A DNA stretch of 64,000 nucleotides from an uncultured Acidobacteriota bacterium (GCA_963764715.1 CAVXTP010000015.1:96001-160000); one strand, 5' to 3'; counted from the first letter of the stretch, positions 18,166 to 51,436 are shown. Notes: generated from the sequence alone by a model not told the origin. Program-made: numbers and translations.

Positions 18166-18209
18166 TCTGCCAACACAGGAACCCGCCCGCCCCCAAAAAG
18201 TTCCTGGTT

Positions 18210-36087: not shown

Positions 36088-38252
36088 AGGCGGGCGAGGG
36101 GCTTGCCGGAGGCGTCGAGGAGCTCGAGGGCGCCGGAGGCGATCCGCCAGCGGGCGGTCGAATGGAGGGCCTCGAGGAAGCGTCGTTCGAGGTCCATCGC
36201 CGGGCAGGCCATCTTCGTCGTCATCAGGGGACCGAACGCGAGCGCCTCGCCCGCGCGGGTGTACGCGCCGGAGACGCGGTTGCAGCCGGCCGAGCCCTGG
36301 ACCTTGCCGTCGGCCGTGAAGCGGAGCTCGATCGGGCGGCCGCCCGTGTCGGCCGGGACCGTTTCGCCCCCGAGGGCGGCGAGCTTCCACGCGCCGGCGG
36401 TCAGGGATGGATCGGCGGCCCTCGGGGGCGCGGCCGCCGGCTCCGCGACGACGACCGGCGACAGTCCCGCCGCCCTGCGCCACTCGACGAGGACCACGTG
36501 GAAGCGCTGCGGACGGTCTCCCGCGGGATCGATCCGGCCGCCCGGCATCAGGTACTCGAGCTCCGCCGGCTTCTCGCGCTTCGCCCACGCCTTGAATTCG
36601 TCGAAGCGGTCGCCCGGGACGACGGCGCCGCGGGGCTCGAAGAGGAAGCCCGAGATCTTCCCCGAGGCATCGAGCCACCACGTCGCCCGGAACTTCTGCG
36701 GCGACCGGTCGATGAGGCGGTAGAAGTCGTTCATCTCGACGCCCGCGGCCGTCACCGAGTCGCGGCCCTCGCGCCAGTCGGAGTACTCGTTCTGCGAGTG
36801 GAAGTACGAATCCCAGCCGCTCCACCGCCCACCGAGCGTCCAGGCCTCGCCGGGGCCCGCCTTCGCCTCCCACCAGATCCGCGCGTCCGGCGACATGAGC
36901 GCGCCGGCCGCCGCCTCGTCGCCCCGCTTTCTCGCCGCCAGAAACTCCTGCACCTTCGCGATCCCGAGCGCGTCCTTGAACACCACGCCGCCCTTCATGA
37001 CCCAGGCCACGCGCTCGAGCGTCGCGACGTCGACGAGCGGGTTGCCGCGCACCGCGATGATGTCGGCGAACCGGCCCGGCGCGATCGCGCCCACGCGGTC
37101 CGACCAGCCCAGCAGCTCGGCCGCGCCGACCGTCGCCGCGCGGATCGCCTCGAGCGGCGTCATCCCGTGCGAGGCCATCCAGACGATCTCTTTCGCGTTC
37201 TCACCCTGGGGGAGCACCGAAGCGTCGGACCCCATCGCGATCTTCACGCCCGCCGCAACGGCCTTCCGGAACCCCTCCTCGCTTCCCCGCCGGAACCGCT
37301 CCTGGCGCTCCCGCTGCCAGGCCGGAGCGTCCGGCGAAGGAGCCTCCTCCTCCATCTCCCAGATCGCGCCGGTCGGAACGAGAAAGACGCCCTTCTCCTT
37401 GAGCATCCGCACGCCCTCGTCGTCCAGGAGCGTGCCGTGCTCGACGGAATCGACGCCGGCGCGGATCGCCGTCTTGATCCCGTCGGTGCCGTGGGCGTGC
37501 GCGGCGACCTTCTTGCCGTAGCGGTGCGCCTCGTCCACGATCGCCGTCATCTCGTCGAGGGTGAACTGGGTCTCGCTCGCGACGTTCTTTCCCTCGCCGC
37601 CGCCCTCGGTCGCCATGATCTTGATGACGTCGGCGCCGTACTTGATCTCGTACCGCGTGAGCTTGCGCACGCCGTCGACGCCGTCCGCGATCCCCGATTC
37701 GCCGCCGACCTTGATCGTCGGGGAAAGTCCTTCGACGTCTTCGTTGTGCCCGCCGGTCGAGCCGATCGCCAGGGTCGCGACCAGCATCCGCGGGCCCGCG
37801 ACGTCGCCGCGGGCGATCGCGTCGCGCAGCGCCACGTCCGTGAAGTCCTTGGCCCAGAGGTCCCGGACGGTGGTGAAGCCGGCCTCGAGAGTCACCTTCG
37901 CGCGGGCGGACGAGGTCACCGCGTCCTGCATCGGGCCGCCCTCGAGCAGGTACTTGTAGGTCGTCGTGAGATGCGTATGACAGTCGATGAGGCCGGGAAG
38001 AATGGTGGCGTCGCCCAGGTCGAAGACCTCGGAGCCCGGCGGGATCGCGAGCCCGGGCCCGACCGCCGTGATCCTCTCGCCCTCGATCAGGACGACCGGG
38101 TTCTCGACGATGCGGCCCGCGACGACGTCGAGCATCGCCTTCGCGCGGACAGCCTTGCGGCTCGCGCGCGCCGCGGCGGGCGCGGCGCCGCCGAGGATCG
38201 CCGCCACGCCGACCGCAAAGACGGCCCGCGCCATCCGCCCCAGGACCGCCAC
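36063..38252 (-). CDS. secreted amidohydrolase fused to NTF2-like and META domains
   Basis: PGLIDCHTH, GFTTVRD, AAHAHG, SVEHG, GSDA, GRFADIIAV; then FLAARKRGD..MSPDARIW; then WKLAALGG..GSAGCNR..TKMAC (META). Confidence 0.85.
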   Translation of the reverse strand: MAVLGRMARAVFAVGVAAILGGAAPAAARASRKAVRAKAMLDVVAGRIVENPVVLIEGERITAVGPGLAIPPGSEVFDLGDATILPGLIDCHTHLTTTYKYLLEGGPMQDAVTSSARAKVTLEAGFTTVRDLWAKDFTDVALRDAIARGDVAGPRMLVATLAIGSTGGHNEDVEGLSPTIKVGGESGIADGVDGVRKLTRYEIKYGADVIKIMATEGGGEGKNVASETQFTLDEMTAIVDEAHRYGKKVAAHAHGTDGIKTAIRAGVDSVEHGTLLDDEGVRMLKEKGVFLVPTGAIWEMEEEAPSPDAPAWQRERQERFRRGSEEGFRKAVAAGVKIAMGSDASVLPQGENAKEIVWMASHGMTPLEAIRAATVGAAELLGWSDRVGAIAPGRFADIIAVRGNPLVDVATLERVAWVMKGGVVFKDALGIAKVQEFLAARKRGDEAAAGALMSPDARIWWEAKAGPGEAWTLGGRWSGWDSYFHSQNEYSDWREGRDSVTAAGVEMNDFYRLIDRSPQKFRATWWLDASGKISGFLFEPRGAVVPGDRFDEFKAWAKREKPAELEYLMPGGRIDPAGDRPQRFHVVLVEWRRAAGLSPVVVAEPAAAPPRAADPSLTAGAWKLAALGGETVPADTGGRPIELRFTADGKVQGSAGCNRVSGAYTRAGEALAFGPLMTTKMACPAMDLERRFLEALHSTARWRIASGALELLDASGKPLARLLGSALNN

Positions 38253-38253
38253 C

Positions 38254-39165
38254 CTACTTCCCCAGGTACTGCTGCACGTTTTCCTTCGTGATCATCGCCG
38301 TCGGGAGAACGATCTTCTTCGGCACCTTCTCGCCCTTGAAGATCTTCTCGGCGACGTCGATGGCCTCCTTGCCGCCCGTCGGGTAGATGAACGTCGCCGA
38401 GAGCTTGCCGTCGGCGACGGCCTGCCGTCCGCCGTCGAGGCCCGGCAGCGCGTCGATGCCGACGAAGAGCATCTGGCCGTCGCGGCCCTTGGCCTTGGCC
38501 GCGAGGAACGCGCCCATGGCCATCGGATCGTTGTGCGCGTAGACGAGGTCGATCTTCTCGTGCGCCGAGAGCGCCGATTCCATCTGCGCCATCGCCTCCT
38601 CGCGCAGCCAGTTGGCGACGGGGTCGTGGACGATGTGGATGTCGGGGAACCCGGCGATCGCCTCGCGGAAGCCCTCGCTCCGGTCGCGGGCGGGCGGCGA
38701 TCCGGGAAGGCCCTTGATCTCGACCACGTCGCCCTTGCCCTTGAGGACCTTCGCGATGAACTCGCCGGCGGCCTTGCCGATCTCCCGGTTGTCGGCGCCG
38801 ATGAAGGTCGTGTAGGTGTCCCCCTCGATCGCGCGGTCGAGCACGATGACGGGAATGCCCTGCTCGTAGACCCGCCGGACGATCGGCGTCAGGGGCCTGG
38901 CCTCGTTCGGCGAGATGATCAGCAGGTCGATCTTCTGACGCAGGAAGTTCTCGACGTCGGCGACCTGCTTGGCGTTGTCCTGCTGCGCGTCGGCGTAGGC
39001 GACCTCGATGTCGGGAAAGCCCTTCGCCGCTGCCGCCACGTCCGCGTTCATGGAGACGCGCCAGGGCTCCCCCAGGTTGCACTGGGAGAAGCCGATGAGG
39101 TGCTTGCCGGACTTCGCCTTGCCGCAGCCGAGGGCGCCGAACGCGAGCGCGAAGAGGGCGGCCAC
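38254..39165 (-). CDS. sugar ABC transporter substrate-binding lipoprotein (RbsB-like); start uncertain
   Basis: Lipobox-like ALGC; IGFSQ, IDLLIISP, IPVIVLDR, YAHNDPMA, VGIDAL; nearest in-frame start is a GTG inside a REP. Confidence 0.85.
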   Translation of the reverse strand: MAALFALAFGALGCGKAKSGKHLIGFSQCNLGEPWRVSMNADVAAAAKGFPDIEVAYADAQQDNAKQVADVENFLRQKIDLLIISPNEARPLTPIVRRVYEQGIPVIVLDRAIEGDTYTTFIGADNREIGKAAGEFIAKVLKGKGDVVEIKGLPGSPPARDRSEGFREAIAGFPDIHIVHDPVANWLREEAMAQMESALSAHEKIDLVYAHNDPMAMGAFLAAKAKGRDGQMLFVGIDALPGLDGGRQAVADGKLSATFIYPTGGKEAIDVAEKIFKGEKVPKKIVLPTAMITKENVQQYLGK

Positions 39166-39214
39166 AAGGGCCGCCCCTACGACGGGAGCGTAGGGGCGGG
39201 GCTTGTCCCCGCCC
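39156..39214. repeat. GTAG-family REP doublet, GTAG ends facing inward
   Basis: GGGCGGCCACAAGGGCCGCCCCTAC 39156-39180, 9 nt, GTAGGGGCGGGGCTTGTCCCCGCCC 39190-39214. Confidence 0.9.
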
Positions 39215-39220
39215 TTCCGG

Positions 39221-39378
39221 CTAGCGCTTCTTCCGCTGGAGCCAGACCGGGCACGGACGGGGGTCAGGTCTTCATTTTTCGGGCCCCGGCTCCGTCCGCG
39301 GCTCGAGTCTCCGTCTCCCGGGGCCTTCGAAAAATGAGAGACCTGACCCCTACCGCTTCTTCCGCTGGAGCCAGACCG
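39221..39378. repeat. 29-bp direct repeat of permease 3' end flanking an inverted-repeat element
   Basis: CTAGCGCTTCTTCCGCTGGAGCCAGACCG 39221-39249 vs CTACCGCTTCTTCCGCTGGAGCCAGACCG 39350-39378. Confidence 0.9.
39260..39350. mobile_element. 91-bp MITE/REPIN-like element with GGGGTCAGGTCTTCATTTTTC inverted ends (type B)
   Basis: GGGGTCAGGTCTTCATTTTTCG...CGAAAAATGAGAGACCTGACCCC; further copies at 63333 and 63977; mobility inferred. Confidence 0.7.
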
Positions 39379-41845
39379 CGCCGAGGATGATGACGCCCTT
39401 GAGGATGAGCTGCAGGTTCGCATCGACATTGTTCAACCCCATGATGTTGTTGATGACTCCGATGATCAGCACGCCGACGAGCGTACCGCCGACCGATCCG
39501 GTTCCCCCCGAGAGGCTCGTTCCGCCGATGACGACCGCGGCGATCGCGTCGAGCTCGTACGCGATCCCGTCGTTGGGATTGCCCTGCTCGAGCTGCGCGC
39601 AGTGGACGATGCCGGCCAGCGCCGCGAGCGTCGCGGCGATCACGTACACGCCGGCCTTGTGCCAGGCCACGCGGATCCCCGACAGCCGCGCCGCCGTTTC
39701 GTTGTCGCCGATCGCGTAGAGGTAGCGCCCGGCGCTCGTGCGCGTCAGGAAGACGTGCATGCCGGCGACCGTCAGCAGGAACAGGACCGCCGGCGCCGGC
39801 ACGAAGGGCAGGAGCGTCCCGGCGATCCGGTGGACCGACTCCGGCGCGCCGCCTTGCCCGAACCCGAGCGGGATCGCCATGCCGCCGCTGACGTACCGGG
39901 CGACGCCGCGCGCCGCGCTCATCGTCGCGAGCGTCGCGATGAAGGGCTGCAGCTTCCAGCGCGCGACGACGAAGCCGTTGATCGCTCCGCAGAGCGCGCC
40001 GACGGCGAGGACGGCGAGGGCCGCCGCTCCGAGGCCGAGGCCGGCCTTCATGAAGAGCCAGGCCGTCAGCGTCGCGGCGAGCGCGAGGACCGAGCCGACG
40101 GAGAGGTCGATGCCGCCCGAGATGACGACGGCGGTCATGCCGACGGCCAGGATCCCCTTCTCCGCGACCTGCCGGAGGATGTCGGTCAGGTTGCCGATGT
40201 CGAGAAACACCGGCCGCCCGCCCCGGACCGGCGAGAAGACGACGGAGAGGAGCAGCACCGCCGCGAGCCCGAAGAGCCCGGTGTACCGTCCGAGCCGGCG
40301 CCGGCCCCGCGCCGGGGGCCCGCCGGACGGCGGACCGCCCGATTCTTCGCGCCGCTCCGTCGCGGTCGTCCCGGCCGCCGCGGCGAGGACCCGCTCCTCG
40401 GTCGCCTCGGCGTGCGGCAGCTCCGCCGTCACGCGGCCCTCGCGGAAGACGAGCACCCGGTGGCACTGCGTCAGGATCTCCGACATCTCGGAGGAGCAGA
40501 GGATGATCCCGAAGCCCTGCGCCGCGAGCCGGCGCAGGAGCGCGTAGACCTCGGCCTTCGCCGCGAGGTCGATCCCCCGCGTCGGCTCGTCGAGCAGCAG
40601 GACCGACGGCGAGGCGAAGAGGCAGCGCGCGAGAATCGCCTTCTGCTGGTTGCCGCCCGAGAGCGTCGCGATCGGGACCTCCGGCGACGCGGCGCGCACC
40701 CCCGTGTCGCGCATGAGCGCGGCGCCGGTCGCGCGCGCGCGAGGCCGGTCGATCCAGCCGAAACGCGAGATCTTCGGCAGCGATCCGACGGTCACGTTCT
40801 CCGATACCGCGAGATCCGGGAAGATCGCCTGGGACTTGCGCTCCTCGGGCAGCAGCACGACGCCGGCCTCGCGCGCTTCGGCGGGCGAGGTGGGCCGGTA
40901 CTCCGACCCGCCGACGACCACGCGGCCCGACACGGGGCGCTCGAGCGCGCCCGTCAGCGCGAGCAACAGCTCCGTGCGGCCTGCCCCGATCAGGCCCGCG
41001 AGACCCAGGATCTCGCCCCGGCGCAGCGTCAGGGAGACGTTCGACAGCCGCCGGCCGCCCGGGCGCTCGGGGTCCTCGACCGACAGGTCCTCGACCCGGA
41101 GGACCTCCGGGGCGCCGGCCTCGAGCGGCGAGAGCTCCACGCGCTCGATGTTGCGGCCCACCATGAGGCGGACCATCTCGTCCTCGCCGACGCCCTCGGC
41201 CTCGCGCGTGACGATGCGCTTCCCGTCGCGCAGCACCGTGATCCGGTTCGCGAGCCGTTGCACCTCGTCGAGCTTGTGGGAGATGTAGACGATCGCGACC
41301 CCGCGCTCGGTCAGGCGGCGGATCAGGCGCTCGAGCCGGGCGGCCTCCGACGAGGAGAGGGACGTCGTCGGCTCGTCCATGATGATGAGCCGCGCGTCGA
41401 GCGAGAGGGCGCGCGCGATCGCGACGAGCTGCCGCTGTCCGGCCTCGAGGTGCCCCACCGTCTCGTCCGGCGCGACGTGCGTTTCGCCCAGGGCCTCGAG
41501 CGCCTTCGCGGCTCCCGGCAGCAGCGAGCGCGGCCGGCCGAGGAAGATGTTCTCGGCGACCGACAGCGACGACACGAGCTGCAGCTCCTGCGGGATCACC
41601 GCGATCCCCGCCTCGATCGCCTCGCGCGGGCTCTCCATCCGCCGCGGCGCGCCGTCGACGCGGACCTCTCCCGCGTAGCCCGAGATCTCGCCGGAGAGGA
41701 TCTTGATGAGCGTCGACTTCCCGGCGCCGTTTTCGCCGATCAGCGCGTGCACCTCCCCCGGCCGCACGTCGAAGTCGACCGCGTCGAGCGCGCGAACGCC
41801 CGGGAACTCCATCGACACGCCGCGGGCTTCGACGAGGGAGGTCAT
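39350..41845 (-). CDS. fused sugar ABC transporter ATPase + permease (RbsA-RbsC-like)
   Basis: GENGAGKST, IIMDEPT, LSGGNQQK, LLDEPTRGID; then GGIDLSVGS, PFIATLA, YAIGDNE.AA.LSGI, YELDAIAAVVIGGTSL in one frame. Confidence 0.9.
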   Translation of the reverse strand: MTSLVEARGVSMEFPGVRALDAVDFDVRPGEVHALIGENGAGKSTLIKILSGEISGYAGEVRVDGAPRRMESPREAIEAGIAVIPQELQLVSSLSVAENIFLGRPRSLLPGAAKALEALGETHVAPDETVGHLEAGQRQLVAIARALSLDARLIIMDEPTTSLSSSEAARLERLIRRLTERGVAIVYISHKLDEVQRLANRITVLRDGKRIVTREAEGVGEDEMVRLMVGRNIERVELSPLEAGAPEVLRVEDLSVEDPERPGGRRLSNVSLTLRRGEILGLAGLIGAGRTELLLALTGALERPVSGRVVVGGSEYRPTSPAEAREAGVVLLPEERKSQAIFPDLAVSENVTVGSLPKISRFGWIDRPRARATGAALMRDTGVRAASPEVPIATLSGGNQQKAILARCLFASPSVLLLDEPTRGIDLAAKAEVYALLRRLAAQGFGIILCSSEMSEILTQCHRVLVFREGRVTAELPHAEATEERVLAAAAGTTATERREESGGPPSGGPPARGRRRLGRYTGLFGLAAVLLLSVVFSPVRGGRPVFLDIGNLTDILRQVAEKGILAVGMTAVVISGGIDLSVGSVLALAATLTAWLFMKAGLGLGAAALAVLAVGALCGAINGFVVARWKLQPFIATLATMSAARGVARYVSGGMAIPLGFGQGGAPESVHRIAGTLLPFVPAPAVLFLLTVAGMHVFLTRTSAGRYLYAIGDNETAARLSGIRVAWHKAGVYVIAATLAALAGIVHCAQLEQGNPNDGIAYELDAIAAVVIGGTSLSGGTGSVGGTLVGVLIIGVINNIMGLNNVDANLQLILKGVIILGAVWLQRKKR

Positions 41846-42021
41846 GGGCAAACGGGTTCCTGAGGGCTTCCGTCGTAGGGGCGGGGCTTGTCCCCGCCCT
41901 GATGAGCCGTGAGGGCGGCCACGAGCCGGCCAACGAAGGCAGGCCACCGGCGGTAGGCAACGCCGAGCGCAGCTCGGCGGTAACCCGCCCCTACGACCGG
42001 GCGCGCGGAACGGACTGTCAT
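41842..42021 (-). other. 59-codon REP-derived ORF coupled at both ends
   Basis: ATG 42021 overlaps ribulokinase TGA (ATGA); its TGA overlaps ABC ATG 41845 (ATGA). Confidence 0.55.
41875..41994. repeat. REP doublet (25-nt form + 82-nt long form), 120 bp
   Basis: GTAGGGGCGGGGCTTGTCCCCGCCC 41875-41899; long form 41913-41994 ending CCGCCCCTAC. Confidence 0.9.
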
Positions 42022-43649
42022 CCTCGCCCCTTCAGCCGCCGCATCAGATCCGTCTTGCGCCCGAAGTGGTCGTGCAGCTCCAGCCAATCCCGGTAGAGCG
42101 CGTCGTACGCATCGGCGGCCTCGGGTCGAGGCGTCACGCGCTCGGGCCTGAGGCGCGCCATGGCGCGCGCCGCGTCGGCGAAGGACCCGTGGCCGCCGTG
42201 CGCCGGCCCCGCCGCGACGGCCCCGAGCATGGCCGCCCCCAGCGCCGAGGCGTTCGCCGCGGCCGCGAGGCCGATCGGCCGCCGCGTCACGTTGGCGTAG
42301 ATCTGGAGGAGCAGGGGGCTCCTCTCGGCGAGGCCGCCCACCGCGATGAGCTCCGTTACCGGGATCTGCTTCTCGCCGAACGCGTCGAGGATCCGGCGCG
42401 TCGAGAACGCCGTCGCCTCGATCAGCGCCCGGTAGATGTCGCCCGCCGTCGTCGCGAGCGTCATGCCGACGAGAAGGCCCGTGAGGTTGGCGTCGACCAG
42501 GACCGAGCGGTTCCCGTTCCACCAGTCGAGCGCGAGCAGGCCGTGGCCGCCGGGCGGCGCCTCGGCGGCTTCCCGCTCGAGCGCCGCGAACCCGGCGCCG
42601 GTGCCGGCGACGAGCCTGGCGAACCAGCCGAAGATGTCGCCGACGGCCGGCTGCCCCGCCTCGTACCCCGAAAAGCCCTCGACGATGCCGTCGCGCACGA
42701 CGCCGCCCACGCCCTCGACGAGGGCGTGCCGGTCCGAGAGCAGCATGTGGCAGGTCGAGGTGCCCATGACCATGACCATCCGGCCGGTCTCGACGACCGT
42801 CGCCGCGGGGACCGCGCTGTGCGCGTCGATGATCGCCGCGGCGACCGCCGTTCCCGGCGCCAGGCCGAGCCGCGCGCCCATGGCCTCCGTCAGGCCGCCG
42901 ACGCGCCGCCCGGGCGGCACGATCTCGCCCGAGAGCTTCGAGGGCAGATCGCCGAAGCGCGGGTTCAGCGCCGCGAAGAACTCCGTCGACGGAAACCCGC
43001 GCTCGCGGCTCCAGAAGCCCTTGTAGCCGGCGCCGCAGGAGTTGCGCACGCGCGCGCCCGAGAGCTCGCCGACGACCCAGTCGCCGCCCTCGACGATCGC
43101 CGCCGCGGCGTCGTAGACCTGGGGATCCTCCTCGAGGACCTGGAGGGCCTTGGCGGCGAGCCACTCCGAGGAGCTCTTCCCGCCGTAGTCGGCGAGAAAC
43201 GCCTCGCCCCGCTTCTCGGCGAGCGCGTTGATCCGGTCGGCCTGGGGCTGCGCCGCGTGGTGCTTCCAGAGCTTGACCCACGCGTGCGGACGCGACGCCC
43301 ACGTCGGGAGCAGGCACAGCGGCCGCCCCGCGGCGTCGACCGGCAGCACGGTGCAGGAGGTGAAGTCGACGCCGATCCCGACGATGGATTCCTTCGCGAC
43401 GCCCGCCGCGGCGAGCGCCCGGGGCACGGCCTTCTCGATCGAGGCGATCCAGTCGCCCGGGTGCTGCAGCGCCCAGTCGGCTCCGAGGCGGACGCCCGAG
43501 TCCGGGAGCGCCGCGTCGATCACGCCGTGGGGATACTCCACGACGGCCGAGCCGCGTTCCTTCCCGGTGCGCGTCTCGACGACGACGGCGCGCACGGACG
43601 CCGTGCCGAAGTCGAGGCCGAGCGCGCAGGGCGGCTGCGGTGCCGTCAC
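42018..43649 (-). CDS. araB: ribulokinase (FGGY kinase)
   Basis: LGLDFGTASVRA, ALQHPGDW, GIGVDFT, WKHHAAQ, IDAH, MGTSTCH, LDWWNGNRS. Confidence 0.9.
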   Translation of the reverse strand: MTAPQPPCALGLDFGTASVRAVVVETRTGKERGSAVVEYPHGVIDAALPDSGVRLGADWALQHPGDWIASIEKAVPRALAAAGVAKESIVGIGVDFTSCTVLPVDAAGRPLCLLPTWASRPHAWVKLWKHHAAQPQADRINALAEKRGEAFLADYGGKSSSEWLAAKALQVLEEDPQVYDAAAAIVEGGDWVVGELSGARVRNSCGAGYKGFWSRERGFPSTEFFAALNPRFGDLPSKLSGEIVPPGRRVGGLTEAMGARLGLAPGTAVAAAIIDAHSAVPAATVVETGRMVMVMGTSTCHMLLSDRHALVEGVGGVVRDGIVEGFSGYEAGQPAVGDIFGWFARLVAGTGAGFAALEREAAEAPPGGHGLLALDWWNGNRSVLVDANLTGLLVGMTLATTAGDIYRALIEATAFSTRRILDAFGEKQIPVTELIAVGGLAERSPLLLQIYANVTRRPIGLAAAANASALGAAMLGAVAAGPAHGGHGSFADAARAMARLRPERVTPRPEAADAYDALYRDWLELHDHFGRKTDLMRRLKGRG

Positions 43650-45316
43650 GCCCGGTACTTCGCCGCCTGGTGCCGGTCGAGCGTCTGCTCGGGATCGCCG
43701 CACAGGTTGACCTGCATACCGAGCGCGCGGGCCATCGAGGCCTTGCGCACGAGCGCCCGGTTTGCCGTGGCCGCGTCCGGCGCGTATGCGACCTGGATGT
43801 GGTTGGCCATGTGCTTGGCCATCATCTGGTCGCGCGTGATCCCGTAGAGGACGGCGTGCATGATCGGCCACTGCGGCGTCGTCGCGTTCCACCGCCGCTG
43901 TGTCTCGGCATCCGACAGCTTCACGACGCCGCCCCGGCCGATGTCCATGTGGAGCGCGTGGTTCTTGACGTACACCCGCGAGAAGACGATCTCGCCCGGC
44001 TTCGAGACGCCCTTGAGGGTGGACCCGCCCTTCGGAAAGTACATGGGCGGCTGGCGTTCGCCCTTCGCCCCGGCGTATCCCCCGATGAAGTGCGAGGCCG
44101 GCGCGGCGCCCGAGATCTCGAAGACCCACACGTACGCGTTCACGCCGTTCTCCTCGACCGCCGCGCCCCAACGCACGTCGTGGAGCGTCGTCGAGGGATC
44201 GATGCCGAGGTCCGTCCAGACCCGGTTCGTCAGCAGCGCGTCGACCCCGGCGCACTCGTCGACCTCGTTGAAGTGCGGCACGGCGAGTCCGGAAAAGAGC
44301 GGCTTCCCGTCGGCGCCGGCGACCGGCGGCCGGTCGGGGTTGTTCAGCAGACCCTCCGCCAGGTCCGACGCGACGCACGTGTCCTTGAGTCCCTGCTGGT
44401 ACTGGATGCCGATCGCGGCGCAGCCGAAGTCGTGCGCCATGCGGACCGCGGCGTCGTACATCTTGAGGCCTTCGAGGACCTGCCCCTCGGTCAGCTCCGT
44501 CGACTCGTCCCGGCCGAGCGCGAACTTCATCCCGCGCGAGGTCAGCCACGCGTAGTGCCGCCGCGCAGCGTCGTCCGGCACCTCGCGCATCGCCGCGTAC
44601 AGCATCGACTGCGAGAGGCGCTCCTTGAAGAGCCCCATCGCGTGCATCAGGTCGTCGGGGACGATCGCGTTGTACATCCCCATGCAGCCCTCGTCGAAGA
44701 CGCCCAGGATCGCCTGGTCGCGCCTCAGTGCCTCGCCGAGCGCGGCGCCGCGGGCCCGGTCCTCGGCGTAGTTGCCGTTGAACGTCCGGTCCTCGATTGC
44801 CTGCGCGTGGCTGGTGTCGTGCGCGATCGCGCCCTGCGACAGCCACTGGCGCAGGGCCCCGCGCGCGAAGCCGTCCTCGAAGTCCTCGCTCCAGATCGAG
44901 CTGTACGGGATCCCCGCCTTCGTCAGCGAGGCGTTGACGTTCAGCATGCCGACGAGGCCCGGCCACTCTCCGCTCCAGTTGGCGAGCGTCAGGATCGGGC
45001 CCCGGTGCCTGGTGAGGCCGGCCAGGATGTGGCTCGTGTACTCCCAGACCGCCTCGGCCACGACGAGCGGGGCTTCGGGATCGATCTTGCGGAAGATCTG
45101 GATGCCGCGGGCCTGCCCGTCGATGAAGCCGTGCTTCTTCTCGGGATCGTACGCATGGCCGCGCGTGATCCGCGCGCCGAGCTCGCCGAAGGCCTTGTCC
45201 ACGGCCTTCTCGAGGGTCTGCTGCGCCGGCCAGCATCTCTGGTTGGCCGAGATCCGCGAGTCGCCGCTCGCGACGAGGACGACCTCCTTTGCTCCGGGCT
45301 TGACGGATGTGCTCAT
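43646..45316 (-). CDS. L-fucose/D-arabinose isomerase-like protein
   Basis: ANWSGEWPGLVG, FDEGCMGM, IGIQYQQG, HFNEVD, TTLHDVRWG, ANHIQVAY; family recalled from memory and supported by position beside ribulokinase. Confidence 0.7.
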   Translation of the reverse strand: MSTSVKPGAKEVVLVASGDSRISANQRCWPAQQTLEKAVDKAFGELGARITRGHAYDPEKKHGFIDGQARGIQIFRKIDPEAPLVVAEAVWEYTSHILAGLTRHRGPILTLANWSGEWPGLVGMLNVNASLTKAGIPYSSIWSEDFEDGFARGALRQWLSQGAIAHDTSHAQAIEDRTFNGNYAEDRARGAALGEALRRDQAILGVFDEGCMGMYNAIVPDDLMHAMGLFKERLSQSMLYAAMREVPDDAARRHYAWLTSRGMKFALGRDESTELTEGQVLEGLKMYDAAVRMAHDFGCAAIGIQYQQGLKDTCVASDLAEGLLNNPDRPPVAGADGKPLFSGLAVPHFNEVDECAGVDALLTNRVWTDLGIDPSTTLHDVRWGAAVEENGVNAYVWVFEISGAAPASHFIGGYAGAKGERQPPMYFPKGGSTLKGVSKPGEIVFSRVYVKNHALHMDIGRGGVVKLSDAETQRRWNATTPQWPIMHAVLYGITRDQMMAKHMANHIQVAYAPDAATANRALVRKASMARALGMQVNLCGDPEQTLDRHQAAKYRA

Positions 45317-45333
45317 GGACGCGTTCTCCCCCT

Positions 45334-47163
45334 TCAGGTTTGGAGGTCGAAGTACATGTTGTACGGCATGTCGGGTCCGATCTTGTAGAACGGAAGGAAG
45401 AGCCCTTCCGGCTGTCCGGGCGCGGCGAATTCGAGTCCCGGGCGGCCGACCATCCACTCCGTCGGCCCGCCCTGGACCTTCAGCCGGGGCGTCTCGTCGC
45501 GCACGAGCACGACCGGGCCGTACGTGACGGCGACGCGCTTCGGGTGCTGCGCGTCGATCGGCGAGAGCGCCAGCCGCATCGGCAGGCGCACCGTCACACG
45601 GTCGCCCGCGCTCCAGGTCCGGCGGAGGACAGCCCACGTCCCGGGCCGCGCGTCGACCGGGTACGCCTTCCCGTTGACCGCGACCTCGACGCCCTGCGTC
45701 CAGGCCGGCACCCGGAACTTCAGGTCGAACGCGGCGCTCTTGCCGGGCCGCACCGTCAGCGTCGTCGCGTCGGCGTCCGGGAACGCCGTCTCCTGTTCGA
45801 CCGAGACGAGCGTGCCGCCCTGGTTCCACGCCGCGCGCGAGGGGACGAAGAGGTTGACGAGAAGGCCGCCCGCGTCCCGGAAGTAGACGACGTTGTGGTA
45901 GTCGGCGAGGACCTGCGGGTAGGTGCCCGAGCAGCACGGCCAGTTGCCGTCGGGGTGGTAGAACTTGCGCCCGCCCCCCATCCGGTAGTCGGAGTAGTAG
46001 AACGTCGCGCCCTTCGGCCCCATCGGGAGGGCGCCGAGCATTCCGTTGTAGAGGAGCTTCTCGATCCAGTCGCCGTAGCGCGCCTGCCCGGTGTACGCCA
46101 GCAGGTAGCGGGCGAGCTTGAACCCGCCCCAGGAGCCGCAGGTCGTCTCGAAGGAGTAGGAGGTCGTCTCGAGCCGGCGGCCGAGCTCGCCGTCCTCCGG
46201 GACGAGGTCTTCTTCGGGGCCGTATCCCCCGGTCGCGTAGCACTGCGTCTGCTGGAGCCAGTCGTACTCGTTGACGATCGCGTCGAGGTACGGCCGCTCG
46301 CCCGTCACGGCGTAGGTCATCGCGCACGACGACATCGTGTTGACGTGGCTGTAGGCGTGGTGGCCGTGTTTCTTGACGTCCGTCGGCGCCGCGCCCGAGA
46401 ACGCGTTCCAGTAGGCGTCGAACCGCCAGAGATCGCCGAACCGGCGGTACTTCTCGTCGCCGGTGACCTGGTACGCGCGGTAGAGGTTCTCCGAGAGCGT
46501 GTACCACTCGGTGTCGGAGTCGAGCTTGCGGCTGCGGTCGAGGTTCTCGATCGCCCAGTCCGTGATCTTCGAGAGGTGCGTCAGGGCGTCCCGGCGGCCG
46601 GCGTAGACCGCCATGTCGACGAGGCCGCCGACCTGCTTGTCGTAGATGTAGTGCGGCTGCCAGGGGCGGCGCGAGTAGAAGAACCAGCCGTCGGGCTCGA
46701 TCGTCGAGGCCCACTCCCCCATCAGGAAGATCGCCTTCGAGCGCATCTCGGCGTCGCCGGTCGCCTTCGACATCCGGGCCATCCCCGAGAGCCACTGGCC
46801 GAAGGTGTTGAAGGTGTCGCCGTTGGACCACCAGAAGCGCCGGTTGGGCTCGCCGCTGTACCAGCCGCCCAGGTCCTGGCCGCGCGCCCGCTGGCCCGCG
46901 CGCATGCGGAAGCCCTTGAGGATGTCGTCGTCGGGGATCGCGTAGTAGTAGGCGCGCATCGTGTCGAACTGCGCCTTCATCGGGCCGGGCAGGAGGGAGA
47001 CGCCCTCGTAGTCGAAGGCCTCGAGGAAGGTCTTCGGCCCGGCCGCCGCGGGAGACGTGGGCGACGCGACGCCGAGGGCGGAAAGCCTCGAGCCCAGCGG
47101 CGCGGCCGTCGCGCCCAGGAGCGCTTTCGTCACGAACTCCCGCCGGCTGGTCCCGTGGCTCAT
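45334..47163 (-). CDS. GH127-like glycoside hydrolase, Tat-exported
   Basis: Twin-arginine SRREFV; FGQWLSG, ETTC and WPCCSG Cys/Glu motifs, YGPVVL. Confidence 0.85.
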   Translation of the reverse strand: MSHGTSRREFVTKALLGATAAPLGSRLSALGVASPTSPAAAGPKTFLEAFDYEGVSLLPGPMKAQFDTMRAYYYAIPDDDILKGFRMRAGQRARGQDLGGWYSGEPNRRFWWSNGDTFNTFGQWLSGMARMSKATGDAEMRSKAIFLMGEWASTIEPDGWFFYSRRPWQPHYIYDKQVGGLVDMAVYAGRRDALTHLSKITDWAIENLDRSRKLDSDTEWYTLSENLYRAYQVTGDEKYRRFGDLWRFDAYWNAFSGAAPTDVKKHGHHAYSHVNTMSSCAMTYAVTGERPYLDAIVNEYDWLQQTQCYATGGYGPEEDLVPEDGELGRRLETTSYSFETTCGSWGGFKLARYLLAYTGQARYGDWIEKLLYNGMLGALPMGPKGATFYYSDYRMGGGRKFYHPDGNWPCCSGTYPQVLADYHNVVYFRDAGGLLVNLFVPSRAAWNQGGTLVSVEQETAFPDADATTLTVRPGKSAAFDLKFRVPAWTQGVEVAVNGKAYPVDARPGTWAVLRRTWSAGDRVTVRLPMRLALSPIDAQHPKRVAVTYGPVVLVRDETPRLKVQGGPTEWMVGRPGLEFAAPGQPEGLFLPFYKIGPDMPYNMYFDLQT

Positions 47164-47828
47164 CGTGCCTCCCGCGTCGAGTGCCGGAATTCTACGTCGT
47201 CTGATCCGCCGATCTCCGGCCGGGTGCGGACGACGCCGATCCAGAGGATGGCGAGGAGGAGGACGAGCAGGTGGGCCGCCTCGAAGGAGTCCGAGGCGGG
47301 GTCGCCGTTTCTCGCGTGGGTCGCGATCGCGCCCACCATGACGAGCGCGAGGCCCGCCGCCGCCACCAGCCGCACGCCCGGCGCGAGCAGAGCGAACGCG
47401 CCGAGCGTCTCGAAGGCGATGACGGCGTAGAGGAACCAGACCGGGAAGCCCGAGGCCGTGAAGAAGGCCCGCATCTCGGCGTCGTGGGCGAGCTTGCCGA
47501 GCTCCGTGGCGAGGAAGGCGAGCGCGACCGAGACGCAGAGGCCGCGAATGAGAAACGGCGAGGCCGCGAAGGCGAGGCCCGCGCCGCGCGTCGCCCCGGG
47601 GGCCTTCGGCCGCGCCACCGCCCGTCCCAGGACGACCGACGCCGCGAGGGCCGCCGCGAGGACGAGGCCGAACCGGAAGATCGCCGCGCGGAAGAGCCCG
47701 GCGTAGGCGCCCCGGATCGGGACGAGCCCGAGCATCGACAGGACCGTCGCCGCGAGCACCGCCGCGCCGGCCGCGACACAGAATCCGTAGAAGACGCGCG
47801 CCAGCCGCTCGCCGCCGGCCGGGGTCAT
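47160..47828 (-). CDS. DoxX-like membrane protein
   Basis: GKLAH..MRAFF..GFPVWF...ETLGA..LL.P...MVGAIATH; ATGA overlaps at both ends. Confidence 0.7.
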   Translation of the reverse strand: MTPAGGERLARVFYGFCVAAGAAVLAATVLSMLGLVPIRGAYAGLFRAAIFRFGLVLAAALAASVVLGRAVARPKAPGATRGAGLAFAASPFLIRGLCVSVALAFLATELGKLAHDAEMRAFFTASGFPVWFLYAVIAFETLGAFALLAPGVRLVAAAGLALVMVGAIATHARNGDPASDSFEAAHLLVLLLAILWIGVVRTRPEIGGSDDVEFRHSTREAR

Positions 47829-49849
47829 TTCCCTTCGATCTGCCGGATCGCGACCTCGGCCGCGTACGACGGCGACCGGTCGATCACCCCGCCGACGTTC
47901 GAGATCTTCCGGGCCGCGATCTGCCGGAGCACCGGGAGCGCCGGCTTCGCCGCCGGGCCGATCGCGCCGAGCGCCTCCGCGCACGCCCGCAGGACGTTCA
48001 CGTTCTCGTCCGCCACACCCGCGGCCGCGACGAGCGCGGGCACCGCAGGCGCCGCCTTCGGGCCGATCGCGGCGAGCGCCTCGGCCGCCGCCATCCGCAC
48101 GACGCGGTCGGAATCCTTCAGCCGCGCCGCGAGGGCGTCGACCGCCGGGGCCGCCGCGGCGCCCATCTTCCCCAGCTCGCGCGCGGCGAGCCCCCGCACG
48201 ACCGGGTCGGGGTCCGAGAGGGCCCGCGTCGCGCCGGCGAGGTCCGTCGGGACCTCCGGCGGCTTCACGGCCGCCGCCTTCGCCCAGCCCTTCGCCCCGA
48301 CCTCGGCGAGGACGATGTTGTCGACGCCGAGCACGTAGCCCGTCGAGGCCGCGTTCCTGCCGATGCAGACGTAGGTCAGCGTGTGCCGCCCCTTCGTCAG
48401 CCGCGGCCAGCCGACCTGGTAGTCCATGCCGACGTAGATCTCGTAGGCGTAGCCGTCGAAGGAGAGCTGCGGCCGGACGTCCGCGCCCGGCTCGTGCTCG
48501 AGGACCGGAGCGACCGGCGGCTTGCCGTCGAGGAGCACGGTGTAGATCCCGTAGTCCGAGCCCTGCGCGACCTGCGTGTAGAGCTCGTAGTCGCCCGACT
48601 CCGGGACCTCGAACGGGATCTCGAGCTTCGAGCCCGGGCCCTCGCCCTTGAAGATGAGGACGTCTTTGGACCAGAAGAGGTCCGGAAAGACCTCGGCCGT
48701 GCCCTTCTCCGTCTTCACCTGTCCGGCCGCCGTCTCGACCTCGAACTGGATGGCGTTGCCCTGCGGGAGCCGCGCCGACCCGTACGGCACGGGCCAGAGC
48801 CCCGTCGCGACGCCGTCCTGGTACCAGTAGGCGACCGACGACATCAGGTCGTCGCGCGTGCCGTAGGGCGACTTGAGCGAGCCATCGTTGTTGAAGGTCC
48901 AGCCCAGGTGCTCGAGGTCGAACCGGAAGGAGGTCTTGAACGGGATCGGGTCCTTGACGTGCCACCGGTATCCCGTCATGCGGGAGCCGAGGCCCGTCCC
49001 GTCGGCGACCGTGACGCCGGTGTACGGCCCGTCGACCACGTGGAGGCCCCAGGCGTCGTTGAAGTAGTCCTCCGAGCCCGTCCCGACGATCGACGGCTCC
49101 TTCTCGCCGTCGACGGTGATGCGCTCGTCGCCCTCGCCGAACCAGCCGGCCTCGGGCTGGATCACGTTGAGCACGGTTCCGGCGTAGAACCCGCGGCCCT
49201 TCACGTCGAGGAACGTGTAGACCTTTTTCTCTGCCGGCGCCGGGAGCTCCTGCTTGTACCGCGCGTGGAAATAGAGGGTGTCGGGCGGAAGGGCCGGGAC
49301 CTTCGACCAGTCGACGTGGTAGTAGACGTGGTCGACTCCGCGCCGGCCCTCGTTCGTCAGCGTGATGCGGCAGGACTTCGCGAACGGCATCGGCCAGTAG
49401 CTGTTGCGGGCCCGCCCGTCGGAGCTCGCGCGGATCATCTCCGACTTGACCCAGCGCTCGAACCCGTGGCCGACGGCGAAGAAGTCGCCGACCGGCGCAT
49501 CGACCGACGGCTCCGCGTTCCCGTCGTAGTAGACCCGCAGGCGCATCAGGCGCGGCCAGGCGTATTCGTTGGCCGCGATCGTCAGCCAGATGTGCGTCAC
49601 GACGCCCGGACCCTTCAGGTCCGCGAGCGTCAGCGTCTCGCCGGGGATGGGGTGTTTGCTGTCGTTGTTGGAGTCGGGGTTCGGGCTCGAGGAGGAGACG
49701 CGCTCGGCCTTCGCATCCTTCATCTGGGCGAAGCGCAGCGCGTCGAGCGGCGGAAGCGGGGCCGTTTGCGCGCGTGCCGGCGCGGGAGCGAGACCGGAAG
49801 CCAGCACCGCGGCGAGGCCCAGCACGGACGTCTGGAGAACGGTCCTCAT
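47825..49849 (-). CDS. GH172 (DUF2961) glycoside hydrolase with extra beta domain and HEAT repeats, secreted
   Basis: GPGVVTHIWLT, PVGDFF, NSYWPMPF, YFHARY, WFGEGDE, GTGSEDYF, YRWHVKDPIPF, SVAYWYQ; C-terminal DPDPVVRGLAARELG repeats. Confidence 0.88.
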   Translation of the reverse strand: MRTVLQTSVLGLAAVLASGLAPAPARAQTAPLPPLDALRFAQMKDAKAERVSSSSPNPDSNNDSKHPIPGETLTLADLKGPGVVTHIWLTIAANEYAWPRLMRLRVYYDGNAEPSVDAPVGDFFAVGHGFERWVKSEMIRASSDGRARNSYWPMPFAKSCRITLTNEGRRGVDHVYYHVDWSKVPALPPDTLYFHARYKQELPAPAEKKVYTFLDVKGRGFYAGTVLNVIQPEAGWFGEGDERITVDGEKEPSIVGTGSEDYFNDAWGLHVVDGPYTGVTVADGTGLGSRMTGYRWHVKDPIPFKTSFRFDLEHLGWTFNNDGSLKSPYGTRDDLMSSVAYWYQDGVATGLWPVPYGSARLPQGNAIQFEVETAAGQVKTEKGTAEVFPDLFWSKDVLIFKGEGPGSKLEIPFEVPESGDYELYTQVAQGSDYGIYTVLLDGKPPVAPVLEHEPGADVRPQLSFDGYAYEIYVGMDYQVGWPRLTKGRHTLTYVCIGRNAASTGYVLGVDNIVLAEVGAKGWAKAAAVKPPEVPTDLAGATRALSDPDPVVRGLAARELGKMGAAAAPAVDALAARLKDSDRVVRMAAAEALAAIGPKAAPAVPALVAAAGVADENVNVLRACAEALGAIGPAAKPALPVLRQIAARKISNVGGVIDRSPSYAAEVAIRQIEGK

Positions 49850-49918: not shown

Positions 49919-51436
49919 TCACTTTTCGGATTTCGCCCCGCTCTTCGCACCCGAGGCGGCCTCCGCCCTGGTTTCCCCCGCAACCGTCCCGCGCGCCTTC
50001 GCGAACCACTGTTTCGCGAGCAAGGGGCGGACGGCGGCCCTCCCGTCGTGGAGCTCCACCCCGACGGTCAGGATGCCGGTCTCGATCAGGAAGGCCCCGT
50101 TGGAGTGCTCGCCGCGCCGGTCGTACTCCCCGTCGATCTGGAAGTCGCCGCCCTCGGCGTGGAGGTTGCGCACGGCCGTCCGTGGCTCCGAGAAGACGAC
50201 GTCCGAAGTCGCCTTGAGTCCATCGAGGTTGATCAGGCCCTGCGTCCACTTCGGGAGCGACTCGCCCAGGAAGGCGACGAGCGGCCGACCGTCCTTGCAC
50301 TCGGCCGCCACCTTCCCGGTCAGGCCGTTCTTCAGCCGGCCCGAAGGGATCTCGAAGTTGCCCCACCAGCCATGCGAGCGGTCGGTGGCGCCGGCGACGA
50401 ACACCTCGGTGAACTTGACCGAGCTGCCTCCGATGTTCGGGCCGCCTCCATCGAGCGTCCAGCCCGCGAACCTCGTCTTCGCCTCGGCGTTGCCCTCGAG
50501 GACGAGGCCGGGCCGCGCGTACTTGCCCTTCTTCGCGGTCAACTCGACCGATCCCGAGGCCACGCCCTTCTCGATCCCGCCCGCCAGCGCGAGGCGTCCG
50601 GGCCCTCCCGAAACGTGAACCCCCCGACCCAGTTGCAGCAGGCCCTCGAGAAAATCGACGCTCTCCGTCGGCCCCGAGAGCTCCGCCTTCGCGGTGACGA
50701 CCGCCCAGACCTTGTCCGCCACGAGCTCCTGCACGTCCCAGTCGGCGAAGGTCGCCTCGAGCTTCCCGTGCGTCTCGGTCATGACGGGGTTCGGCCCGAG
50801 CGCGAACTCGCCCCCCGAGAACACGACCGAGGCGGGACCGATCTGCGCGCGGTGGCCGGGCTTCAGGCGGAAGCGCCCCTTCAATGCCGCATTGCCGCGG
50901 TGGCGCATGGCGTCCACCCAGATGTCGTCGAACGCGTCGGTCGCAACGTCGAGGACCTCGACCGTCCATGGATTCGGTTGGGGCGGGCCGAGCTTCGCGT
51001 CCGGATCGCGCAAAGGCGGGTCCGGGAATCCCGGGATCTCCGGCAGGTTCCTGAGCCGCTCGGGCGTCGCCTGCGCCGCGAGCACCTTCTGCCGCAGGCG
51101 GAACTGGATCGACGTGGGGCGCAGGGCGGTCACCCGGAACGTGCGCCGCAGGAGCGCGCCCACTTCGTAGGAGACCGTCGTCTCCGGGATCGTCACGATC
51201 CACTGCACGTTGGGATCGCTGCCCCGGATCCGGAGGTTTTTCAGCCAGACGGAGCCGGGCCAGGTCGACACGGCCTCGTCCCAGTCGATGAAGATCTCCT
51301 CGGGCTTCTTGTTGATCTCGGCGCGCAGCACCGGCCCCGAGAGGAGCTTCTTCGCCGCGATCCGGTAGGCCCCGAGGAACAGCAGCGGAAGGGCGGCGAC
51401 GACGAGCGCCGCGATGAGAAGGCCTTTTCTCCTCAC
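49919..51436 (-). CDS. membrane-anchored beta-rich hypothetical protein
   Basis: 505-aa ORF with N-terminal anchor; fills the gap in the minus-strand gene run. Confidence 0.7.
   Translation of the reverse strand: MRRKGLLIAALVVAALPLLFLGAYRIAAKKLLSGPVLRAEINKKPEEIFIDWDEAVSTWPGSVWLKNLRIRGSDPNVQWIVTIPETTVSYEVGALLRRTFRVTALRPTSIQFRLRQKVLAAQATPERLRNLPEIPGFPDPPLRDPDAKLGPPQPNPWTVEVLDVATDAFDDIWVDAMRHRGNAALKGRFRLKPGHRAQIGPASVVFSGGEFALGPNPVMTETHGKLEATFADWDVQELVADKVWAVVTAKAELSGPTESVDFLEGLLQLGRGVHVSGGPGRLALAGGIEKGVASGSVELTAKKGKYARPGLVLEGNAEAKTRFAGWTLDGGGPNIGGSSVKFTEVFVAGATDRSHGWWGNFEIPSGRLKNGLTGKVAAECKDGRPLVAFLGESLPKWTQGLINLDGLKATSDVVFSEPRTAVRNLHAEGGDFQIDGEYDRRGEHSNGAFLIETGILTVGVELHDGRAAVRPLLAKQWFAKARGTVAGETRAEAASGAKSGAKSEK

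Follow-up and report, generated by a model that had tools for sequence, protein, structure and literature searches.

The 64,000-nucleotide stretch of DNA analysed here (GCA_963764715.1, CAVXTP010000015.1:96001-160000; hereafter the window) belongs to an uncultured Acidobacteriota bacterium of the soil and contains a cluster of seven genes, running on the minus strand from position 49849 down to 38254 (Table 1). The cluster encodes an exported enzyme of glycoside hydrolase family 172 (GH172) fused to HEAT repeats, a DoxX-like membrane protein, an exported GH127/GH146-like cysteine glycosidase, an isomerase with the FucI/AraA fold, an AraB-type kinase, and an ATP-binding cassette (ABC) transporter with its binding protein. 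We consider it probable, if well short of certain, that the cluster is an operon-like unit for scavenging D-arabinose, which would carry out the release, import, isomerisation, and phosphorylation of the sugar; every substrate is inferred. An earlier interpretation of the DNA, made without database searches (the sequence-only reading), had also proposed the uptake and catabolism of D-arabinose, arguing that FucI converts this sugar. The proposal is favoured by comparative genomic context, on which our assignment is based, but the argument from enzyme families is not transferable, because sequence and profile searches of the PDB gave no match for the isomerase, which resembles FucI at the level of the fold only.

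Genomic context of the isomerase

At least 597 genome loci and at least 8000 scored proteins make up the family of the isomerase, whose members are about 60% identical across Acidobacteriota, Verrucomicrobiota, Planctomycetota, Chloroflexota, and Bacteroidota. The best 80 of the at least 597 loci were searched by tblastn with the window proteins for homologues within 10 kb, and the Pfam domains of neighbours were tallied from open reading frames filtered by G+C content at third codon positions, 114 of 313 of which were scanned. Genes for GH172 enzymes are present at five of the 80 loci (L006, L009, L010, L012, L065), for GH116 enzymes at four (L010, L011, L060, L079), and for AraB-like kinases at twelve. 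The loci with GH172 or GH116 span Acidobacteriota, Gemmatimonadota, and Chloroflexota. The Gemmatimonadales contig L010 carries genes for GH116, the isomerase, an ABC transporter with binding protein, and GH172 in this order, and its isomerase is 74% identical to that of the window. The GH116 enzyme of L010 matches the exo-β-D-arabinofuranosidase ExoMA2 (PDB 8ic6) with an E-value of 1.4e-102, and its next PDB match has an E-value of 2.2e-06. In a sample of 401 genomes of the phylum, the isomerase was found in 18 genomes, in 15 of them with at least 54% identity, and it is accompanied by GH172 at 4 of 14 loci, in three different gene orders.

Seven kinases encoded beside the isomerase were scored, from Planctomycetota, Verrucomicrobiota, Pedobacter, and a Thermomicrobiales metagenome-assembled genome, and six of them pass the ribulokinase cut-off (612-733 versus 428 bits). 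No Aldolase_II gene was found beside the isomerase in five genomes with isomerase-kinase pairs. In Hymenobacter telluris, a canonical AraA is encoded beside an Aldolase_II gene at a locus separate from that of the isomerase, and AraA is also present in 3 of the 15 isomerase-bearing genomes of the phylum. A different, 478-residue-long isomerase (Fucose_iso_C, 96 bits) occurs in all four isomerase-bearing genomes that were tested for it. In genome G189, a GH127-like enzyme, GH51, AraD, the 478-residue isomerase, and a kinase are encoded in a row, forming an L-arabinose cluster (locus L106, G189:C1, 3447-10855, where the aldolase-family member is AraD-like and the kinase of the FGGY family); the same Acidobacteriota cluster was seen at L105 and L114. 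AraD-like genes were found in 67 of the 401 genomes and AraA_N in only 25, and therefore the 478-residue protein may be a common non-canonical L-arabinose isomerase. Six of the 15 isomerase-bearing genomes lack an AraD-like gene, including all four sampled from the family of the window organism. At two Hymenobacteraceae loci (L028, 5561-11587; L024, 5826-11611), the isomerase gene follows those for an SSF transporter and a dihydrodipicolinate synthase (DHDPS)-family lyase, a context that could represent a sugar-acid route of the 3-deoxy-D-manno-octulosonate (Kdo) type releasing D-arabinose. A divergent AraC-type regulator is encoded at L028, the one locus scanned for regulators, and an apiosidase-like gene follows at L024. 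Taken together, the neighbourhoods suggest that the isomerase family produces ribulose, is not the L-arabinose isomerase, and is partnered by the two enzyme families known to release D-arabinose.

The genome of the window organism comprises 4.36 Mb in 26 contigs and is 96.8% complete; all genome-wide searches refer to this assembly. The closest contigs carry the labels Acidobacteriota and Thermoanaerobaculia. It contains no match to AraA_N, which was detected in 5 of 14 control genomes, and tblastn searches with AraA, AraD, FucI, and FucK of Escherichia coli found nothing in it. The single Aldolase_II gene of the genome was rejected as AraD, since it scores 47 versus 251 bits with the AraD model, has a signal-like N-terminus, and reaches 85 against a cut-off of 200 with its best model. 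The statement of the sequence-only reading that araA and araD are missing from the cluster thus holds genome-wide. Fuculose-phosphate aldolase (FucA) was not found in the genome, and ribulose-phosphate 3-epimerase is present. A route for L-arabinose or L-fucose would be incomplete, because recognisable AraA, AraD, FucI, and FucK were not found. The conversion of D-arabinose through D-ribulose to D-ribulose-5-phosphate would be complete with the genes of the cluster, and an AraD-type epimerase would therefore be unneeded.

Proteins of the cluster and the proposed pathway

The isomerase matches the Pfam domain Fucose_iso_C just above its cut-off (31.0 versus 29.3 bits) and Fucose_iso_N1 below it (26.0 versus 28), and Fucose_iso_N2 is unmatched. 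It has no NCBIfam match and no match to the AraA domains of Pfam, and neither phmmer nor a profile search found a match in the PDB. The AlphaFold2 model of the isomerase, with a predicted local distance difference test (pLDDT) score of 91.2, was compared to known structures using Foldseek. The best matches were FucI/D-arabinose isomerase structures (E-values 3.2e-20 to 9.2e-20, template modelling score of about 0.5, 15-16% identity), and those to AraA were 1.6e-16 and weaker with about 11% identity. In our reading, the modelled protein represents a third branch of this fold beside FucI and AraA, as yet uncharacterised. The catalytic and Mn-binding residues of E. coli FucI are Glu, Asp, and His. 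Invariant E351, D353, D380, H502, and H506 of the isomerase family are candidates only for catalytic or metal-binding residues. Members of the family carry only the database names "fucose isomerase" or "L-fucose isomerase-like protein". The PDB searches, and a literature search on D-arabinose isomerases in general that was not aimed at this family, found no characterised or solved member. Based on its neighbours, the protein is proposed to isomerise D-arabinose to D-ribulose.

The kinase passes both ribulokinase equivalog models of NCBIfam (NF003154, 660 versus 428 bits; TIGR01234, 633.6 versus 583.25 bits) and scores far under the cut-offs of the xylulokinase, fuculokinase, and glycerol kinase models. 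A tblastn search of the genome with E. coli AraB found this kinase alone, with 35% identity. Cottam et al. (2025, PMC12307932) showed for E. coli that AraB acts as a kinase on D-ribulose in vivo. We propose that the kinase of the cluster makes D-ribulose-5-phosphate. The fused ABC protein consists of tandem ABC_tran domains and a BPD_transp_2 domain (residues 553-823), which together with a Peripla_BP_4 binding protein is the layout of a monosaccharide importer of the carbohydrate uptake transporter 2 (CUT2) type. It scores 420-500 bits with the NCBIfam models XylG, AraG, and RbsA, and the binding protein scores 150 bits with RbsB and 140.9 bits with YtfQ. Because the equivalogs for xylose, arabinose, ribose, and galactofuranose are all under their cut-offs, the family models leave the sugar of the transporter unassigned. 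The best PDB match of the binding protein is, by a wide margin, 2x7x, annotated as "sensor protein" (2e-79), followed by binders of ribose and galactofuranose. We assume that 2x7x is the sensor domain of BT1754, and on this assumption the match counts in favour of the D-arabinose proposal, since D-arabinofuranose is D-fructofuranose minus C1 and cross-recognition of the two sugars would be the same as that shown by GH172 enzymes. The sensor domain of BT1754 binds fructose (PMC3404733). The binding protein had been called a lipoprotein; it has a Cys after a hydrophobic stretch, which makes this possible, but its start codon is uncertain because a hairpin resembling repetitive extragenic palindromic (REP) elements overlaps the 5' region.

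The GH172 protein of the cluster matches DUF2961 with 252.8 bits (cut-off 27) over residues 100-344 and profile positions 2-235 of 235, and contains a β-sandwich middle region and HEAT_2 repeats at residues 543-609. In a PDB sequence search, it matched 4kq7 (1.4e-49), 8ah3, a GH172 enzyme of Dysgonomonas gadei (2.3e-46), the exo-α-D-arabinofuranosidase 8ic8 (4.4e-41), and αFFase1 (7v1v, 1e-38). The scores against solved α-D-arabinofuranosidases are slightly better than that against αFFase1, but the values are close. Alignment to 8ah3 indicated that both catalytic glutamates are kept, as E239 (GEG) and E260 (SED, in the motif GT/SGxED), with the 21-residue spacing of Dg79. We consider the protein a probable exo-α-D-arabinofuranosidase, as judged from its sequence. 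The acid/base and nucleophile of the Dg79 GH172 enzyme are E256 and E277, and the oligomeric state of GH172 enzymes is set by C-terminal elements, according to a preprint (Ross et al. 2026). The genome encodes two more GH172-HEAT paralogues, 65% and 61% identical (G000:C14:215921-217903 and G000:C22:462200-464194). They were rejected as extra sugar loci since their neighbours are M14 peptidase and outer-membrane genes in one case and aconitase and URO-D genes in the other; the HEAT fusion is thus a feature of the lineage. The second GH172 gene of the window, which the sequence-only reading had placed 12 kb away, is present 12.3 kb from the cluster, and its reading frame is broken once near 62.8 kb. 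Its C-terminal 186 residues match ExoMA1 (8ic8) with an E-value of 4e-72 over 180 residues. The frameshifted gene could be a pseudogene or the result of an assembly error.

The cysteine glycosidase contains the catalytic domain PF07944 (126.5 bits) and the middle domain PF20736 (90.8 bits) of the GH127 enzymes, and its C-terminal region does not match PF20737. The sequence-only reading had called it a GH127 enzyme with a twin-arginine translocation (Tat) motif; the domains and the motif are present, but the best PDB match is 5opj (2.4e-33, about 119 bits), which we take to be the GH146 enzyme BT0349. The motifs C410-C411 (PCCSG), E339/C342 (FETTC), and E317/E318 (GPEE) are kept. In Bll3HypBA1, residues E723, C725, C804, C805, and E694 form the Zn site and catalyse the reaction, comprising three Cys with a Glu, a Cys nucleophile, and a Glu acid/base (PMC10850190). 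The Cys pair, C342, and a Glu of the GPEE motif align with this site, and the Zn-site Glu is one residue farther from the Cys (E339-T-T-C342) than it is in solved members. The E-T-T-C motif was rejected as a peculiarity of the protein, since all of the subclade has E-x-x-C, homologues from L-arabinose clusters among them. In the GH127-like protein of this genus, 44 of 165 positions near-invariant in 15 homologues from other families are altered, including W314Y beside the acid/base region and Y345W beside the Zn-site Cys.

Close relatives of the GH127-like protein (at least 71% identity, 15 loci on metagenome contigs) have the isomerase gene downstream in all eight cases in which downstream DNA is visible, and GH172 upstream in 8 of 11. 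A new specificity of the enzyme, raised by the sequence-only reading, agrees with this constant link to the isomerase, but the more distant relatives (34-46% identity) are found in L-arabinose clusters. Neighbours of the 17 homologues in this range, tallied from 111 scanned open reading frames, include GH51 (3), GH42 (3), GH35 (2), canonical GH127 (3), and FGGY kinases (3). Ancestry from β-L-arabinofuranosidases is indicated, because these relatives adjoin L-arabinan and plant-glycan genes. Within the group of 56-60% identity, two contigs (L134, L167) again pair the gene with GH172. In the window, the GH127-like gene lies directly upstream of the isomerase gene, in the place of GH116 in the Gemmatimonadota loci L010 and L011. 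The enzyme may have switched from β-L- to β-D-arabinofuranosides or another D-arabinan cap and do the job of GH116, a suggestion that we regard as tentative and rather doubtful. It is based on the GH116-like position, a genome without GH116 or an L-arabinose pathway, and residues beside the catalytic motifs that differ from those of homologues in L-arabinose clusters. The same reading would make the isomerase the founder of a very widespread and uncharacterised family of D-arabinose isomerases. β-D- and β-L-arabinofuranosides are mirror images, and a switch of specificity would therefore need a large change of the sugar pocket, which counts against the altered role. Our literature search found no paper on a D-arabinofuranosidase in GH127 or GH146.

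The DoxX protein is coupled by gene overlaps to both of its neighbours. A DoxX_2 gene accompanies GH172 in seven metagenome relatives (L122, L123, L128, L129, L130, L132, L143). In soil metagenome contig L121 (about 1860-3931) and in L120, L122, L128, L130, and L143, a gene of about 2 kb is located between the GH127-like gene and the isomerase gene; inspected by eye, it reads as a β-propeller serine peptidase of S9 type with a GxSxGG-type motif.

Based on these assignments, a pathway for the use of D-arabinose may be outlined. The cleavage of glycans is placed in the periplasm because both glycosidases are exported and CUT2 transporters import monosaccharides. The GH172-HEAT enzyme would remove α-linked D-arabinofuranose there. 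The Tat-exported GH127/GH146-like enzyme would remove another terminal furanose, which may be β-D-arabinofuranose caps, or β-L-arabinofuranose if the ancestral specificity has been kept. Free D-arabinose, probably in the furanose form, would be captured by the binding protein, which resembles RbsB, YtfQ, and a fructose sensor, and imported by the fused CUT2 transporter. The isomerase would convert D-arabinose to D-ribulose in the cytoplasm, and the kinase would phosphorylate it to D-ribulose-5-phosphate, allowing direct entry to the pentose phosphate pathway. The source may be fragments of actinobacterial arabinan or lipoarabinomannan freed by other organisms, or other glycans that bear D-arabinofuranose.

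Outside the envelopes of mycobacterial and related cells, D-arabinose is a rare sugar. The first enzymes that take D-arabinan apart were identified in 2023, and in the loci that encode them the isomerase and kinase of the catabolic route are still putative. The D-arabinan locus of Microbacterium arabinogalactanolyticum encodes the GH183 enzymes EndoMA1/2, the GH172 enzyme ExoMA1, the GH116 enzyme ExoMA2, an ABC transporter, and, as putative enzymes, an isomerase and a kinase by which D-ribulose-5-phosphate would be formed (Shimokawa et al. 2023, PMC10509167). Both loci combine GH172, an ABC importer, an isomerase, and a kinase, and the conversion of D-arabinose to D-ribulose-5-phosphate is proposed for both, although the isomerases are likened by description only and not by sequence. 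The second GH172 of the window is close to ExoMA1, and orthologous loci of other phyla carry ExoMA2-like GH116. In contrast, GH183 and GH116 were not found in the acidobacterial genome, and a GH127/GH146-like enzyme occurs where relatives have GH116. The exo-enzymes of Microbacterium are described as cytoplasmic in that report, whereas both glycosidases of the cluster are predicted to be exported; an SBP_bac_8 oligosaccharide importer is present there, and a CUT2 monosaccharide transporter with a Peripla_BP_4 binder here, where GH172 also carries HEAT repeats and DoxX is encoded as well. Judged from sequence and context, the cluster may be described as a variant of the type of D-arabinan locus reported in 2023, distinguished by the GH127/GH146-like enzyme, DoxX, the GH172-HEAT fusion, periplasmic exo-enzymes, and monosaccharide import.

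Polysaccharide utilisation locus 42 (PUL42) of D. gadei encodes three GH172 enzymes, GH183, and a protein predicted to be a fucose isomerase (Al-Jourani et al. 2023, PMC10115798; Ross et al. 2026 preprint). On D-arabinan, no carbohydrate-active protein of D. gadei was more abundant than this predicted isomerase (PMC10115798). PUL42 and the cluster share the linkage of GH172 exo-α-D-arabinofuranosidases to a FucI-type isomerase, the isomerases being likened by description only, and the pair of catalytic Glu of GH172. PUL42 is a SusC/D-type system of Bacteroidota with endo-arabinanases, whereas the acidobacterial set is ABC-based and contains exo-enzymes only. Two further comparisons are with E. 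coli and with the solved enzymes of clan GH-P. E. coli uses D-arabinose through FucI with FucK/FucA or, in E. coli B, through FucI with the D-ribulokinase DarK. The chemistry from D-arabinose through D-ribulose to a ribulose phosphate is shared, as is an AraB-type kinase, which in E. coli accepts D-ribulose. AraB of enterohaemorrhagic E. coli acts on this substrate (PMC12307932). However, the resemblance of the window isomerase to FucI is confined to the fold (15-16% identity, hhalign not significant), FucK and FucA were not found in the genome, and the kinase resembles AraB (35% identity to that of E. coli) rather than DarK. With the clan GH-P enzymes (GH127 HypBA1; GH146 BT0349 and Bll3HypBA1), the cysteine glycosidase shares the catalytic and middle domains, the Cys pair with the nucleophile, the third Cys with a nearby Glu, and the acid/base Glu region. 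It differs in its low score to the best solved member (about 119 bits), the unmatched C-terminal domain, E-x-x-C instead of E-x-C, and a partner pathway without AraD.

Together with its relatives, the locus singles out one concrete and very widespread family as the likely isomerase of D-arabinose. If this is true, members of the soil Acidobacteriota, Gemmatimonadota, Chloroflexota, and other groups would feed on the wall glycans of actinobacteria or on other sources of D-arabinose. An isomerase plus a ribulokinase without AraD would then be a usable genomic marker, and the GH127/GH146-like enzyme a good candidate for a new specificity among the unusual cysteine glycosidases.

Points against the proposal and rival explanations

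Several observations weigh against the D-arabinose proposal. The survey of cluster conservation found GH172 or GH116 near isomerase orthologues in several phyla, but 72 of the 80 loci, many on short contigs, have neither, and the usual context of the isomerase is varied. AraD-like genes are present elsewhere in 9 of the 15 isomerase-bearing genomes of the phylum, and six of these nine lack AraA_N, which would also fit the isomerase standing in as an L-arabinose isomerase; all four tested genomes have the 478-residue isomerase. Mapping of the active site by hhalign with a 32-sequence family alignment was discarded, as E. coli FucI was matched with 0.8% probability and AraA with 0.2%, and no residue-level alignment was obtained. 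Because the alignment to FucI and AraA failed, the substrate is not deducible from the isomerase family. No GH183 (DUF4185) match was found in the genome, a weak negative given that none of 14 control genomes was positive. The GH116 domain PF04685, detected in three control genomes, was also without a match in the genome, and a tblastn search with the GH116 enzyme of L010 found nothing. Actinobacterial wall arabinan, which the sequence-only reading had named, is a putative source. The ExoMA1-like second GH172 gene is frameshifted, and no regulator gene is located within the cluster. The GH127-like gene heads a cluster without nearby GH172 in genus member G286 and in contigs L124, L126, and L170, its relatives of 56-60% identity pair with the 478-residue isomerase, and those of 34-46% identity adjoin genes for the use of L-arabinose or plant glycans, GH51 and AraD among them.

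The cluster might instead serve the use of β-L-arabinofuranosides and L-arabinose. The GH127/GH146-like enzyme would have kept its ancestral activity, the isomerase would replace AraA, the kinase would be an L-ribulokinase, and an unrecognised or unassembled epimerase would take the place of AraD. All solved relatives of the GH127-like enzyme with a named activity are β-L-arabinofuranosidases, its 34-46% homologues lie near GH51, GH42, GH35, canonical GH127, and FGGY kinases, and the gene row of G189 combines a GH127-like enzyme with GH51, AraD, the 478-residue isomerase, and a kinase. The GH127-like enzyme is the sole glycosidase beside the isomerase in G286, L124, L126, and L170, the kinase passes models trained on L-ribulokinases, and the six isomerase-bearing genomes with an AraD-like gene and without AraA_N fit as well. 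However, L-ribulose-5-phosphate would be a dead end, since no AraD-like gene was found in the genome or in the four sampled genomes of the family. The isomerase also coexists with AraA (in 3 of 15 genomes and in H. telluris) and with the 478-residue isomerase (in four of four), its orthologues adjoin GH172 and ExoMA2-like GH116 and not GH51 or GH43, and the binding protein resembles binders of D-furanoses. We therefore regard the use of L-arabinose as improbable.

Another D-furanoside or a rare sugar is a distinctly improbable substrate. GH172 would then be an α-D-fructofuranosidase of the difructose-anhydride type, the binding protein would take fructose or a related ketose, and the isomerase and kinase would handle D-psicose or D-altrose, L-fucose, or D-ribose. 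The closest solved relative of the binding protein, 2x7x, is presumably a fructose sensor. The enzyme αFFase1, which the cluster GH172 matches at 1e-38, near its scores with D-arabinofuranosidases, acts on both α-D-fructofuranosides and α-D-arabinofuranosides (PMC8605356; PMC10509167). The substrate of the isomerase is putative, which leaves room for such sugars, but an aldose-ketose isomerase and a ribulokinase would both be superfluous for fructose. Among the family models, the kinase passes the ribulokinase equivalogs and not the xylulokinase, fuculokinase, or other models, fuculose-phosphate aldolase was not found in the genome, and an ExoMA2-like β-D-arabinofuranosidase is added in orthologous loci. 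It is highly improbable that the cluster consists of two modules with unrelated substrates (GH172-DoxX-GH127-like and isomerase-kinase-ABC-binder) brought together by chance or recent rearrangement. The modules can be separated: in G357, GH172 is joined straight to the isomerase without a GH127-like gene, G286 lacks GH172, several metagenome relatives have the gene of about 2 kb between the GH127-like gene and the isomerase, and the two other GH172-HEAT paralogues occur in unrelated contexts. Nevertheless, all the genes share one strand, stop codons overlap the start codons that follow, and the gap at the module boundary is 17 nt. The isomerase follows close GH127-like relatives in eight of eight cases, with GH172 upstream in 8 of 11, and the linkage of GH172 to the isomerase recurs in varied gene orders across other families and phyla.

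Layout of the cluster and other features of the window

Genes were picked by third-position G+C content first, because the window has a G+C content of about 70%, and by family searches second. The seven co-oriented genes of the sequence-only reading were all recovered on the minus strand between 38254 and 49849.

Table 1. Positions in the window of the cluster genes, the second GH172 gene, and the intergenic elements (columns: feature, position, strand, remarks)
Exported GH172-HEAT	47825-49849	-	674 aa; DUF2961 + HEAT_2; Sec-type signal peptide
DoxX_2 membrane protein	47160-47828	-	222 aa; Pfam DoxX_2 54.3 bits
Tat-exported GH127/GH146-like cysteine glycosidase, clan GH-P	45334-47163	-	609 aa; SRREFV twin-arginine motif
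FucI/AraA-fold isomerase	43646-45316	-	556 aa; weak Fucose_iso_C/N1 Pfam matches
AraB-type ribulokinase	42018-43649	-	543 aa; NF003154, TIGR01234
Fused CUT2-type ABC ATPase-permease	39350-41845	-	831 aa; two ABC_tran + BPD_transp_2
Peripla_BP_4 binding protein	38254-~39165	-	193 bits; start codon uncertain
Second GH172, frameshifted	62152-63325	+	signal peptide; two DUF2961 pieces in different frames
REP-like GC-rich hairpin, kinase-ABC gap	41874-41900	.	exact 27-nt copy of 39189-39215
ABC/binding-protein spacer	39155-39349	.	inverted REP-like pair + 32-nt copy of ABC gene 3' end

The stop and start codons overlap as ATGA at the GH172/DoxX and DoxX/GH127 junctions and as GTGA at the isomerase/kinase junction, and the gap between the GH127-like and isomerase genes is 17 nt. 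Longer gaps separate the kinase from the ABC gene (172 nt) and the ABC gene from the binding-protein gene (about 184 nt), and each contains a REP-like hairpin. The 22-nt core of the palindrome occurs 128 times in the 4.36-Mb genome when up to two mismatches are allowed, and further copies of the element are located in the window near 3407, 12068, and 23651. A copy of the 32 nt with which the ABC gene ends, stop codon included (39350-39381), is located 129 nt downstream (39221-39252) and is 94% identical. This duplication in the spacer looks like the footprint of an insertion. A scan for promoters and terminators was uninformative, with no promoter-like sites and three terminator-like sites versus 4.4 expected.

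Genes on the same strand flank the cluster on both sides. A 505-residue membrane-anchored protein with no Pfam match is encoded at 49919-51436, 69 nt upstream of the GH172 gene. An amidohydrolase-META domain fusion at 36063-38252 directly follows the binding-protein gene and is probably unrelated to the cluster. Elsewhere in the window, an open frame of 2040 codons on the minus strand (12097-18216) has a strong coding signal.

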